A stretch of DNA of 64,000 nt from Eledone cirrhosa (taxonomy: Eukaryota): positions 353,896,001-353,960,000 of the forward strand of contig OZ024740.1 in NCBI GenBank assembly GCA_964016885.1, given 5' to 3'. Positions 2,670-34,312 of this stretch are shown here, one piece after another. The notes under the pieces were generated by a model. That model had not been told where the DNA came from and made no database searches. It worked only from the letters and a program-made list of their open reading frames with translations. The position numbers were made by a program, and so were the translations under genes. How positions within the stretch are numbered: position 1 is the first letter of the stretch; the number at the start of each line of letters is the position of its first letter.

Positions 2670-2840
2670 ATAGTAGAACGCTGGTGGGTTACATCCATAG
2701 TAGCAGAGTACTCAGTCCATGGGACGAGTTTGGTAGATGTAGTCCCACAACAGTTCACCATTACCGAGAACTGATGATCCGAATAAGGTGAAACAATTGT
2801 TCTAGGTAATGGTGATCTAATTGTTGTGAAACTACTTCTA
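2670..2840 (+). mobile_element. Solo PLE terminal-repeat fragment with 5' inversion, related to 13047-13165
   Basis: 2771-2840 resembles 13052-13119 directly; 2685-2770 resembles the reverse complement of 13080-13165; (TA)n on both sides. Confidence 0.75.
2764..2816 (+). ncRNA. Type I hammerhead ribozyme motif (minimal, palindromic stem III)
   Basis: CTGATGA-tcc gaataa ggt-GAAA-caattg-TT; stem I register slightly irregular. Confidence 0.6.
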
Positions 2841-3318
2841 TATATAGATAGATAGATATGGTTGCGGGTGTGTATGTATTAGGGTTGTATATATAAGGAA
2901 GCATGTACGATATGTTTATGATTAATACACATCCTTTTAGATTCGCTGTGAGATATTATAAGAAGCTGTGAACGTATCACAGCTATCCTGTTACTGCATT
3001 TTCTTTTTTATATATATAAAAAAGAAAATTTTCGCTCTACATGGCTGAATACATGCAGATCCACTGATCAGCCAGATTTGAATATCAGCAGACTGACCAG
3101 TCAGTTTCCTGTATACGAGCGATAAATGGCCGGCTTTGCCAAATTCAAATAAAAAAGAAAATTTTCGCTCAACATGGCTGAATACAATAAATCTAATCTG
3201 AGTTTTTCGAATATTAATAACATTCGATTCGTTTGCAATTATGCAAACAAGCCTCAATTTTATAGCCATGTCAATAGAATGAACCCTTCATTCTTGCTCT
3301 TGTGTTGGCATGTAACAG

Positions 3319-3366
3319 AACTGCAGACACTAATGTTTCTGGGTATCACCCGTCATCAGTACAGCT
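3319..3366 (-). ncRNA. Type I hammerhead ribozyme
   Basis: Reverse complement of the 3707-3754 motif. Confidence 0.85.
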
Positions 3367-3706
3367 CACTGATCACCTGTCAAACTGTCAGAGCTAGTGA
3401 AAATATATGCTATTTTCAAAAATACACAGTGACTGATCGGCCTGATTTGCATATTAGCAGACTGGCTGATCAGTCAGATCTGCACATTAGCAGATCTTCT
3501 GATCAGCCAGATTTGCGTATCAGCAGACTGCTCGTATACAGTTTCCTGTATACGAGCGATAAATGGCCGGCTTTGCCAAATTCAAATAAAAAAGAAAATT
3601 TTCGCTCTACATGGCTGAATACAATAAATGTCATCTGAGTTTTTCGAATATTTTTGAAAATAGCATATATTTTCACTAGCTCTGACAATTTGACAGGTGA
3701 TCAGTG

Positions 3707-3754
3707 AGCTGTACTGATGACGGGTGATACCCAGAAACATTAGTGTCTGCAGTT
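3707..3754 (+). ncRNA. Type I hammerhead ribozyme
   Basis: AGCTGTA-CTGATGA-c GGGT gat ACCC a-GAAA-cattagtg-TC-TGCAGTT: 7-bp stem I, 4-bp stem II, near-palindromic stem III, GUC cleavage triplet (cut after 3747). Confidence 0.88.
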
Positions 3755-30786: not shown

Positions 30787-32532
30787 ATGCATGGACTAGA
30801 CATTGGAAATAAAACACAACCCTTCATGCCAAGGAAACCTAAGATTAATATGAAGGATCATAAAAGAAACTTTGAAAATGATTTACCAGTCAGATTAATT
30901 GCACCATCTAAATCTGACCTTGGCAGACTTAGCAAACATATTCTAGACAGAATAATACCGCAAATTAAGAATTTACCTAATTTATCTTACTTAAAATTAT
31001 GGAAAGGGACTAGTGAGGTTATCGATTGGTTTAAAGAAATTAAATATAACTATAATAATAAGTTTATTCAGTTGGATATTGCTAACTACTACTCATCTAT
31101 CACTCCTAATCTATTGAATAAGGCACTAACTTACGCATTTAAACATACAGACATAACTAGCAATGAAATACACATTATATTATCGGCACGGAAAACATTA
31201 ATAGAATTAAATAACCAACTCTGGACTAGGGCAGATATAAATAATAATTTCGACATAACTATGGGATCTTCAGACTCAACTCACGTAACGGACCTTGTGG
31301 GCCTATTTATAATTAATTCTCTACATAGAAAAATACCAGGTGTAACCGGAGGTTTATATCGTGACGACATGCTTTTACTTATAGAAAATAATAGCTGTGA
31401 ACTAAATAGAAAAAGAAAATAAATTATACATTTTTTTAATTACCTTAATCTAAAAGTAGAAATAGAGAATAACCATAAAATAGTCAATTTTCTAGATGTA
31501 ACACTAAATCTTAACACATGTCTTCATTATCCATTTCACAAACTAAATGAGAACTTAAATTATGTCAATTTTAACTCTAATCACCCCAGATCCGTTAAAA
31601 ATACTATAGTGAACTCTGTACAAGAACGAATTTCGAGAATTTCATCTAATAAGAATATATTTGATGAAAAAGCGCATTATTACAACGAAGCGTTAGGTAG
31701 AGCTGGGTATAGAAATAAAATTAAATACATCGATAATAATAATACTATAAAAACTAACCAAAATAATAACAATTTTAACTATGGTAACAATTTTAACAAC
31801 TATAATAGAAAACATTACAATAATTCCGAAAGCCGAAAAAGAAATAGAACTAGGAATATAGTATGGTTCGCTCCTCCTTTCTCACTAAATATTAAAACCC
31901 CTATTGCTAAACTATTCTTTAAAGCCCTCGACAAACGCTTCCCTAGAACACATAGATATTACTCAATTTTTAATAGACATACTATAAAATTAACTTACTC
32001 TTCCACCAAAAATTTAGCGCAAAATATTAATAGAATTAATAATAGAAATTTAAAACCTAACCAAAATACCAATAATAAACCAAGCAATATTCAATCGAAT
32101 AATTGTAACTGTAGAAGTAAATCCAACTGTCCGTTAAATAACAATTGCTTAGCTAAAAATGTAGTTTATAATTGTAATGTAAAAACTAATTTAAATGTAT
32201 TTAATTATGTCGGGTCTACCTCCACAGAGTTTAAATCCCGCTTCAATAATCATAAAAATTATTTTACAGATCCAAACAAAAAATCTTCAACTTCGCTATT
32301 TAGCCTATTATGGGACCTAAAACGAGATAATGTTGAATATTCGCTGATTTGGAATATTATTTCAAAAGCTACTCCTTTTAATTCCTCTTCAGAAAATTGC
32401 GATCTTTGTATAGAGAAAATATTCTTTATATTAAAGACCAAAAATTCCCTAAATTTAAGGAATAATTTATTCAGTTGCTGCAGACATATATTGAACTCAA
32501 CATTTAAATATAAATATAAATTTAAAATGTAG
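30787..32532 (+). pseudogene. PLE RT-GIY-YIG ORF, 5'-truncated, one in-frame TAA at 31420
   Basis: MKDHK..PVRLIAP.KSDLG; LDIANYYSSI; MGSSDS; YRDD; CNCRSKSNCP; VVY...YVG; CDLC...CCRH; ORFs 30787 and 31609 share a frame. Confidence 0.9.
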
Positions 32533-34061
32533 TATAATTAATTGAGTAATTTGGTTAATATATGAAACCTGTCGATAAATCATTAGATTCCTTCATCTTT
32601 TTCATTTTCTTTGGTTAAGTACTCAAGTATAAATAAATTTTCTTCCTAAATATAAATATAATAAACTATTCTAGAGAAATATATTGAGAGCTCTTGAAAG
32701 GAGAAAATATTTCCTATTTCTTATATTTTTCATTTTTTTTTTTTTTTCATTTTTTTTCATATTTTTTCATATTTTTTATATTTTTTATATTTTATTTATT
32801 TATTTATTTTATATTAGGTTTCTTTTTTATTCTGATAGCTTCTCATAATTTTCGAACGTTTATCCTTTCAATATCTTGAGTAAAATATACGTAAGATAAA
32901 TTTCTATACTAAATCTATTAAACATATTATTTTAACTTAAAATATTCTATAATATTTTTAAATATTTTAATATTTTAATATTTTAGAATTCTTTTGTTTT
33001 TAAGTTATATTGATATAATTATATTTCCAAAATATAATCCTTTTGTATTTTATGTACTCAATTATACTATGTAATATATTGATGTATACGTATCTCTATA
33101 CGAGTATGTATGTATATGTGTGTATTGACATACATATACATGTGTTATATGCATTTTTATGAATATATGTCTGTCTGTATATATGCATGAGTGACGCGTG
33201 TCTACCAATTGGGTGATGCAGACACATGTGTATATGTGTATATGTAAGAATTGTGTGTGTACATGTACATGTGTACCCATACAATTTGATTGCAGATAGG
33301 CATAATTTAACAGCCATAAATGCATGAAAGCTAATCCTATATATTTTTATATATATATATTAAAAATTTTTTTTATTTAATAACACAAGGGATGTATAAC
33401 ATTAATAATAAAAAAAATCATTTATGCTTTGTATGTATATATTATATAGGGGAGTAGATATAATGTGTATCTTCTGAGTGTGTATATATATATATATTTA
33501 TGTGTATCTTTTGCGTGTGTGTACGTGTTATATGATAGGTAATTTTCTCTAGCAATATATAGATTTATTAATGTTTAAATTTAAATTTTTAATATATTGA
33601 TCTCAACTTTTAAACTAAATATCTAATCATAGTTAAACAATGATTAATTTCTCATATTATATATGTATATTCCATTCATGAATATTAATATTTCTAATTT
33701 TATTTATTCATTTCATCTCAATTGTTAACTTAACTTAATATGACGTGACTTAAGGTTTTCGTTCTCTCCCCCTCTCTCTATCTCTATATTTCTCTCTCTT
33801 GATTTTTTCTCTCTGTCTGGTGTTTTGATATCTCTCTCTCCTTTTTCTTTTTTCTTTTTTTTCTCTTTTTCTTTCTTTGTATCTCCCTTTCTTTCTCAAC
33901 TTTTCTCTCTCTCGGTTTTTCTCTCTCTCCGTCTTTTTCCTTCTCTGTAACACAATGACTTACTAAGATAAACAAATCCAATATCCCTGATGTCTTCCAA
34001 AAGTAACGGTTGTATTTTGAAAGGGTATGTCAAAATTTATTTATAAAACTGGTATATATTG

Positions 34062-34126
34062 TATTTTGTCTGATGAAAGCATACCATAATTTAACATGGT
34101 ATCCTTGAAATATGAATAATAAAATA
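34062..34126 (+). ncRNA. Type I hammerhead ribozyme
   Basis: TATTTTGT-CTGATGA-AAG c ATACCAT..ATGGTAT c CTT-GAAA-tatgaa-TA-ATAAAATA; stem I extendable by TTTATTTATAAAACT/GGTTTTATAAATAAA. Confidence 0.78.
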
Positions 34127-34312
34127 GATATGGTTTTATAAATAAAGTTTCCATTTGTTAATATCGTATATATATATATATATATATATATATATATATA
34201 TATGCACATCCAGGTGGTGCTATTAAGTTAGACATGACCTGGGCAAATACTGGCTAAAACCCATCAAAGTTATCAAAGTTGCATACACACACACATATAT
34301 ATATACATATAT

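Follow-up and report, generated by a model that had tools for sequence, protein, structure and literature searches.

The window is the whole 64-kb stretch of Eledone cirrhosa DNA that was analysed, and all coordinates are positions within it. Two Penelope-like elements (PLEs) with recognizable ORFs lie on its plus strand. PLE1 (family A, 12999–15697) has a unit of 2.58 kb whose 5' pseudo-LTR is truncated, an ORF (13340–15445) broken by two frameshifts in which the reverse transcriptase (RT) motif is YSDD, and hammerheads at 13052 (with a stem I mismatch) and 15634. PLE2 (family E, 30780–34166) is 5'-truncated, which has removed about 165 N-terminal residues, and it carries an in-frame stop, a 1.6-kb 3' UTR and a hammerhead at 34070 with an AUA triplet and a predicted cut after 34118; unbroken ORFs of 732 and 742 aa are present in two relatives (L235 and L237). 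The 3' ends of both elements are of the short of two types described below and run into (TA)n. Family F (12745–12990, minus strand) belongs to a third coding family of Penelope-like elements, of which it keeps a 5'-truncated 3' end with a hammerhead core at 12956, a stem II of 62 nt, a predicted cut after 12876 and a long 3' end; its coding status was assigned from a GIY-YIG-type domain upstream in the relative L243 and a 3' UTR common to L243, L244, L245 and L249. F and PLE1 stand head to head within one TA tract. Co-insertion of the pair in a single event was considered and set aside, being indistinguishable from two insertions into one TA tract.

In PLE1 and PLE2, a GIY-YIG endonuclease lies C-terminal to the RT, with a CxCx5C linker, CxxC and CxH as read from the alignment. 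PLE1 and the full-length PLE2 relatives have RWR as their RW[R/K]-type motif, plus DKT, and about 25 of the first 44 residues of PLE1 match Hydra-1_Obim by eye. Pfam gave no significant match for the Penelope ORFs. The initial annotation had taken these proteins to be Naiad-like. Because Naiads are described as having an N-terminal endonuclease and no canonical hammerheads (Craig et al. 2021, PMC8557442), the C-terminal endonuclease, the Hydra motifs and the canonical hammerheads of PLE1 and PLE2 argue against that assignment, and their ORFs fit the Hydra clade. Hydra-clade PLEs as described in the same source, including Hydra-1_Obim of Octopus bimaculoides, whose hammerhead and (TA)n target appear in its supplement, likewise have a single ORF with RT followed by a C-terminal GIY-YIG and the RW[R/K], DKT, CxCx5C, CxxC and CxH motifs. 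They also share the (TA)n target and a canonical hammerhead that lies on the sense strand close to the 3' end, both present in PLE1 and PLE2, as well as partial tandems, inverted 5'-truncated arms and a tail at one end. In contrast, PLE2 and F have 3' UTRs of 1.4–1.6 kb, the full family E unit measures 4.07 kb against the published 'under 3 kb' rule, and tails are 65–90 nt here compared to 30–40 nt as published.

Three other families consist of ORF-less units (longest ATG-started frames of 129, 102 and 41 aa and GC of 0.39, 0.35 and 0.34 in B, C and G, respectively). Family B (3016–4318) has a 438-nt unit and GUC-triplet hammerheads at 3359 on the minus strand and at 3714 and 4152 on the plus strand. 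Previously described as a three-copy tandem array, it is a two-armed insertion with a minus arm (3016–3652) bearing one motif and a plus arm (3649–4318) bearing two. Family C (17390–19347, minus strand) is young, with a unit of about 460 nt (447 nt plus internal (TA)n); its array comprises 3.6 units on the minus strand and an inverted 5'-truncated arm (19159–19347), and its hammerheads at 17671, 18146, 18639 and 19140 have a GUA triplet and a palindromic ACUAGU stem III. The octamer ATGCAAAT occurs once per unit in B and likewise once per unit in C. Family G (28203–28985, minus strand) is a 743-nt unit with a 45-nt direct partial repeat and a hammerhead with its core at 28504, a stem II of 97 nt and a predicted cut after 28389 (GUC). 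Copies of all three are dispersed and look retrotransposed, those of C over many contigs, and arms longer than one unit, up to six units, occur among the copies of ORF-less families. With ORF-less tandem units and one type I hammerhead per unit, B, C and G are retrozyme-like, of the non-LTR kind, in their sequence organization. Of two supposed solo islands of non-coding sequence, the one at 28385 is indeed a non-coding unit (family G), whereas that at 12870 is the truncated end of the coding family F.

The stretch also holds remnants and old copies of further families. Family A2 (2670–2838) is a sister family of PLE1, represented by a two-armed fold-back remnant that is flanked by (TA)n on both sides. 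The remnant has a long 3' end on its left arm (minus) and a short one on its right arm (plus; core 2771–2777, predicted cut after 2801); all 40 of 40 scored loci, the window itself apart, match it at 78–86% and have different junctions. Family D (16567–16763, plus strand) is an old copy with a core at 16681; compared with its relatives, it has a damaged cleavage triplet and stem II. Family J (16825–17368, plus strand) comprises two decayed copies of a unit of about 300 nt with mutated cores at 16894 and 17195; in the relatives L037 and L397 the hammerhead is still intact. Family H (19543–19666, no strand assigned) represents a TA-inserted family that is very common; the remnant has a hammerhead 3' half (GAAA, hairpin, GUC), and the 5' core was absent from every family H locus examined. 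Family I (29111–29251, minus strand) has a hammerhead 3' half at 29185–29199 and lost its core by 5' truncation, with the whole hammerhead retained in the relative L365. Identity to the nearest scored copies is 98–100% for C, 97–99% for E, 90–96% for B, F and G, and 78–86% for A2 and D; on these values the families are not of one age, and dispersed candidates number in the thousands for every family.

A strict, structure-aware scan for type I hammerheads (CUGAnGA, GAAA and NUH core with helices I–III in type I order) returned 11 motifs between 2600 and 34300, all satisfying the core-and-helix definition, with cores at 3359−, 3714+, 4152+, 12956−, 15634+, 17671−, 18146−, 18639−, 19140−, 28504− and 34070+. 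Block-wise dinucleotide shuffling gave a mean of 0.005 and a maximum of 1 motif in 200 shuffles, which puts the motifs above chance, and the same scan found no type I hammerhead in the remaining 32 kb of the window. Three degenerate motifs add to the 11: those at 13052 (4 of 6 pairs) and 2771 (the fold-back junction of A2) have a full core and fail the stem I rule, and that at 16681 lacks U16.1 and some of stem II when compared with its own family. Every coordinate at which a hammerhead had been annotated thus points at a motif. The earlier count of at least six families is borne out by seven to eight, as are the direct or inverted ends of the hosts and their (TA)n flanks, one end of B running into (TG)n. 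Candidate cores at 17740, 18215 and 18708 on the plus strand were discarded as chance-like since relatives do not conserve them, and those at 31273−, 32392− and 20073+ were likewise discarded as chance-like. Among BLAST-found copies, the core is intact in 13 of 20 for B, 13 of 20 for G, 16 of 20 for F and 20 of 20 for E. None of six motifs in three small stretches searched with Rfam reached the gathering score (cut-off 52): two, in C and A2, gave sub-threshold HH9 matches of 18.6 and 20.2 bits, and B and E gave no hammerhead match. On the whole window, the 150 of 164 Rfam matches listed were of a low-complexity microRNA type and included no hammerhead. Single-strand folding did not set the motifs apart (7 of 8 had z values between +0.3 and −2.0), nor did it by itself favour the hammerhead fold for most of them.

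The ends of the insertions were mapped at best-scoring loci rather than in a random draw. Measured from the predicted cut, copies end at two fixed 3' positions, +36/+103 in A, +49/+140 in E, +52/+131 in F, about +145/+180 in B and +242/+300 in C. A long and a short end occupied opposite arms in 31 of 33 two-armed insertions of A, E, F, F6, F7 and H (P = 7e-8). The ORF-less families showed the same pairing, in 12 of 13 insertions of C and 6 of 6 of B (18 of 19 together), which gives 49 of 52 over eight families; the window's own C array is an exception, with two short ends. Family G had one fixed 3' end only and no two-armed copy in 20 loci. Judging by these ends, the ORF-less repeats are likely to be copied and pasted by the same enzymes as Penelope elements. 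For the 5' ends, coverage from +22 onward was the sole condition by which copies were chosen. In B, 12 of 28 ends fell in the 22 nt just behind the predicted cut, with 5 of 29 in G and 3 of 26 in C; the total is 20 of 83 compared to 4.1 expected, and four ends fell at 0/+1 compared to 0.4 expected. The pile-up comes mostly from B, and the majority of its ends are found between +11 and +20, close to where the extended stem I has its outer end, so RT stalling may explain them. The coding family F displayed no pile-up (4 of 39, with 4 in the next bin), and its difference from B, G and C together was not significant (P = 0.09). In first, query-biased samples, 1 of 36 C ends and 0 of 25 B ends lay within 10 nt of the cut, and a hazard pooled over all loci was dropped since query choice confounded it. 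The pile-up behind the predicted cut is a hint that RNA already cut does serve as a template in family B.

We consider it probable, at roughly 0.7, that (TA)n tracts of the stretch received about eleven insertions in separate events and that its ORF-less units were inserted in trans by Penelope-like proteins. Coding Penelope-like families account for three of the insertions, and two of these have the full set of Hydra-clade features; ORF-less hammerhead units account for at least three others. Tandem loci would be transcribed, B and C perhaps from a promoter of their own containing the octamer, and the protein would nick both strands of a (TA)n tract, each strand then priming RT at one of two internal start sites 35–300 nt downstream of the ribozyme, a step modelled on an in vitro result for another Penelope-like element. 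The two cDNAs would be joined at their truncated 5' ends. The hammerhead would cut part of the RNA, giving copies that stop just behind the cut, and uncut multimers or circles would give arms of up to six units. Since each insertion would leave TA on both sides, later elements could land beside earlier ones and produce local clusters like this stretch. The hammerheads appear, as first proposed, to be carried by Penelope-like elements that target microsatellites and by ORF-less units with Penelope-type insertion marks; the neighbouring PLEs make poor helpers, both window copies being broken and sharing only TA-rich DNA with the non-coding units.

B, C and G show no homology beyond TA-rich DNA to the three coding families (PLE1, PLE2 and F) or to D, and the two protein searches revealed no coding family as young as C. 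This lack of a sequence link would fit another (TA)n-targeting clade (Naiad, Neptune or other); Naiads too have a preference for (TA)n, and their insertions show tails and inverted arms; other Penelope clades also target (TA)n and leave tails. We regard that alternative as unlikely, given that cephalopod Naiads are reported as long-inactive remnants (Craig et al. 2021, PMC8557442), whereas Hydra-type ORF pieces are abundant (5 of 60 arbitrary 10-kb stretches; 39,096 and 28,267 first-look candidates, which are not copy numbers) and some relatives have unbroken ORFs.

It is more improbable still that the ORF-less arrays are satellite DNA that arose from old ends of Penelope elements and expanded through unequal crossing-over, with the hammerheads as inert passengers, a route discussed by Li, Clavereau and Pollet (2026, bioRxiv 10.64898/2026.07.22.740005). 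One six-unit array of C has a period-3 variant pattern, a mark of local duplication, and divergence within C arrays (1.4%) is near that between arrays (1.6%); variant patterns in 25 C arrays did not distinguish rolling-circle copying from multimer templates. However, DNA recombination accounts for none of the many-contig dispersal, the two fixed ends, the inverted 5'-truncated arms with long/short pairing or the stops of B copies behind the predicted cut, and trans insertion by Penelope-like proteins remains the preferred reading.

The initial annotation had described the stretch as a hotspot. Sixty arbitrary 10-kb stretches of the genome held 54 motifs, or 0.9 per 10 kb (bootstrap 0.58–1.27), with up to 5 in the densest, compared to none in 10 shuffles of the 600-kb sample; in 47 of the 54, (TA)5 occurs in the 200 nt that follow the cut, compared with 20% of arbitrary positions. 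The sample extrapolates to about 270,000 predicted motifs genome-wide. The 200 kb surrounding the window held 12. Against this background, 11 or more motifs in 64 kb have a probability of about 0.09, and the value of 0.004 for a 30-kb stretch applies to a stretch picked after the fact. The window is an ordinary-to-dense sample of a hammerhead-strewn genome estimated to hold a few hundred thousand predicted motifs. A special local hotspot in which two neighbouring Naiad-like elements drove the surrounding ribozyme repeats, as the 31.7-kb stretch at about four times the genome mean and the head-to-head F and PLE1 might suggest, is very improbable when the whole window is within range, the families differ in age and are dispersed, and the ORFs are Hydra-type and broken.

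The ORF-less units resemble metazoan non-LTR retrozymes (Cervera and de la Pena 2020, PMC7229834) in being dispersed ORF-less tandem units with one type I hammerhead each and low GC (34–39% here), but at 438–743 nt they are longer than the published 170–400 nt or so; no RNA run was listed as containing family C in a sequencing-run lookup. In that study, as far as its available text goes, PLEs are named only as candidate helpers and no insertion signature is given; its counts, which use another descriptor, are >6,000 in a coral, about 5,000 in a mussel and up to 120,000 in axolotl. The account of Li et al. 2026 is, in the portion available, vertebrate-centred and argues from co-occurrence and pseudo-LTR homology rather than insertion ends; such homology was not found here for B, C and G against the three coding families and D. 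Eight of nine Xenopus retrozyme dimers did not cleave in that study. The Poseidon element PAc (Frangieh et al. 2024, PMC11167929) likewise has two internal RT start sites defining the genomic tail, both strands nicked and extended, and an AT-rich target. It belongs to another clade, cleavage is dispensable for its insertion in vitro, and its described products show no RNA ends at the cut, whereas family B copies pile up behind the predicted cut. As with the PLE minimal hammerheads (Cervera and de la Pena 2014, PMC4209133), there are many heterogeneous families per genome, mostly lone motifs or opposite-strand pairs from truncated PLEs, with a palindromic helix III suited to dimers and an extra base before helix II. 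Counts there are in the thousands (about 9,000 in Xenopus tropicalis), and several families here differ in their helix II inserts of 60–120 nt.

The phenomenon had been thought uncharacterised in cephalopods. The literature on cephalopod and octopus hammerheads that we found consists of Craig et al., who already give the Hydra-1_Obim hammerhead and (TA)n target, and the giant-squid genome paper, with 235 Rfam hammerhead matches; the supplements of PMC7229834 and of the 2026 preprint may list cephalopod retrozymes. The octopus Hydra family in the available text of Craig et al. (PMC8557442) is a single one with few copies and no non-coding derivatives, and the non-coding families and the scale seen here were not found in this literature.

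The locus itself is not special, and a link between PLEs and retrozymes in general has already been proposed in print. More tentatively, at somewhat short of even odds, the hammerhead load of this genome may rank among the largest counted so far, at several hundred thousand motifs in more than 30 families, and its ORF-less units would record a full retrozyme life cycle, with cut RNA and circles or multimers both copied by Hydra-clade proteins from a different start site for each target strand. The insertion ends bear on which enzyme moves animal retrozymes and on whether the Penelope hammerhead cuts in vivo. They are evidence at the level of mechanism, in that the long/short pairing (49 of 52) points to a different start site for each target strand, and the mapped ends make start-site use and templating by cut RNA directly testable with short RNAs.

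A structure-aware scan of the window requiring the core, helices I-III and the NUH triplet of a type I hammerhead returned 11 motifs in 2600-34300 and none in the rest, whereas 200 block-wise dinucleotide shuffles of 2600-34300 gave a mean of 0.005, far below the observed density. Every coordinate quoted in the initial annotation falls on a scanned motif or on one of three cores (2771, 13052 and 16681) that failed the strict rule, yet whose families include intact motifs. The (TA)n flanks that it described are present at the ends of every host, except for one end of family B (3016-4318). 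Beyond that annotation, three decayed or truncated hammerhead-family islands lie at 16825-17368, 19543-19666 and 29111-29251. Rfam matches and single-strand folding give weak support for the window motifs, which is unsurprising for motifs that are small and partly of the dimer type, and are no proof of activity. The island at 19543-19666 represents a very common family, H, matched by 74 of the collected loci (L253, L257, L279 and others). In two-armed H copies the junction often falls within a long hairpin immediately preceding GAAA; no 5' core was found among the matching loci, so the motif may have an exceptionally long helix II or its parts in a different order.

The proteins proposed to mobilize these motifs had been called Naiad-like, which their architecture contradicts. 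Both coding Penelope-like elements (PLEs), PLE1 (family A, 12999-15697) and PLE2 (family E, 30780-34166), place a GIY-YIG-type domain behind the RT and carry RWR, DKT, CxCx5C, CxxC and CxH, the set by which Craig et al. 2021 (PMC8557442, section 11) mark the Hydra clade; Naiads, by contrast, have the endonuclease in front and lack canonical hammerheads. The supplement of that paper lists Hydra-1_Obim of Octopus bimaculoides, 2507 bp, with a (TA)n target and a hammerhead. Both window copies are broken; relatives of PLE2 retain unbroken ORFs of 732 and 742 aa within a 4.07-kb unit, with the 34070 motif located in its pseudo-LTR. The supposed solo island at 12870 proved to be the 3'-terminal 250 nt of family F (12745-12990, minus strand), the third coding family, since in locus L243 an F-type end lies downstream of an endonuclease domain, joined via a 3' UTR common to other copies.

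Families B, C (17390-19347) and G (28203-28985) consist of complete tandem units lacking any long frame, of 438 nt, 447 nt plus internal TA, and 743 nt, respectively. First-look searches gave 2,468, 980 and 3,619 candidates, which are not copy numbers. B, C and G showed no resemblance beyond TA-rich DNA to PLE1, PLE2, F or family D (16567-16763). B and C each contain one ATGCAAAT octamer, absent from the tested segments of A, E, F, D and G, which may serve as a promoter. Family C is very young (98-100%). Its 3'-most window unit (17390-17870) has variants common to an older-looking copy (L025) and absent from neighbouring units, possibly through insertion onto an older copy or a template switch. 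A six-unit C array (L026, G000:C1:297478516-297481084) shows a period-3 variant pattern, either a local duplication or an assembly artefact.

Two fixed 3' ends were found downstream of the predicted cut in A (+36/+103), E (+49/+140), F (+52/+131), B (about +145/+180) and C (+242/+300); a single one was seen in G. Among insertions with two divergent arms and both ends classed, a long end was paired with a short one in 31/33 cases in A, E, F, F6, F7 and H (about half expected), 12/13 in C and 6/6 in B. A one-sided tail of this kind was described by Craig et al. 2021 (PMC8557442), and two internal RT start sites were tied to the tail by Frangieh et al. 2024 (PMC11167929). The two ends and their pairing in the ORF-less B and C are therefore a mark of Penelope machinery. 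In A2 (2670-2838; L252-L265), a sister family of PLE1, independent fold-back copies, selected by this shape, have their junctions no more than about 25 nt from stem I, and in several the inverted arm stops exactly at the predicted cut.

The 5' ends were examined in copies picked only for covering +22 onward, window copies and one duplicate array being dropped. Ends within 22 nt behind the predicted cut numbered 12/28 in B, 5/29 in G and 3/26 in C, or 20/83 pooled, where the upstream rate predicts 4.1; four lie at 0 or +1 (0.4 expected). The B ends mostly fall between +11 and +20, where the extended stem I terminates, and may thus reflect RT stalling; against it, the predicted stem is stronger in C (-19.4) than in B (-13.9) and the pile-up smaller. 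Coding family F showed no pile-up (4/39), a contrast with the non-coding units that is not significant. Arms in C reach six units and traverse the predicted cut repeatedly, and therefore uncut multimers or circles also act as templates; variant patterns in C arrays do not discriminate between the two. A search of sequencing runs listed no RNA set containing family C.

The suggestion of a local hotspot was not confirmed. The identical scan of sixty 10-kb stretches at round coordinates on large contigs found 54 motifs (35 in the first 40, 19 in the next 20; 0 in ten shuffles), or 0.9 per 10 kb (bootstrap 0.58-1.27). Against this background, eleven motifs have P = 0.09 in 64 kb and P = 0.004 in 30 kb, a stretch picked after the fact; counts per stretch are clumped (variance 1.8, mean 0.9), and the surrounding 200 kb contains 12 motifs. 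If the sample is representative, the 3.0 Gb carry ~270,000 motifs (170,000-380,000), likely a floor because the core was lost in 7/20 B, 7/20 G and 4/20 F copies found by BLAST. The 353 motifs from 1.4 Mb of collected sequence fall into 33 sequence clusters. Of the 54 background motifs, 47 have (TA)5 in the 200 nt that follow the predicted cut, versus 20% of arbitrary positions. The hammerhead/(TA)n pattern is genome-wide.

Elsewhere in the window, 8215-11781 is a degenerate 3.5-kb satellite made of (TA)n, in which a 23-nt period recurs, and contains no hammerhead. Inverted repeats at 7418-7998 (60 and 30 nt arms) flank a TA/TG tract and had no relative among the collected loci; several copies of dispersed 100-150 nt repeats, SINE-like by appearance, lie at 5034-6450, 20708-21895 and 26961-27078. 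The hammerhead-free 34300-64000 has few (TA)n runs and instead several non-LTR retrotransposon frames: endonuclease and RT at 42622-43824 and 54299-57919 (minus), an 814-aa RT frame between (TAA)n runs (45101-47545, minus) and a partial relative (52425-53927).

Published accounts cover hammerheads in PLE ends (PMC4209133), Hydra elements in octopus (Craig et al. 2021, PMC8557442), retrozymes with PLEs as candidate helpers (PMC7229834) and retrozymes as PLE derivatives (Li et al. 2026, bioRxiv 10.64898/2026.07.22.740005). In the literature searched, mainly non-subscription, no account was found of cephalopod non-coding hammerhead families or of such a scale. The window motifs are real and their families new members of already known kinds; the locus itself is unremarkable, although the genome around it is remarkable, and it offers useful mechanistic clues.
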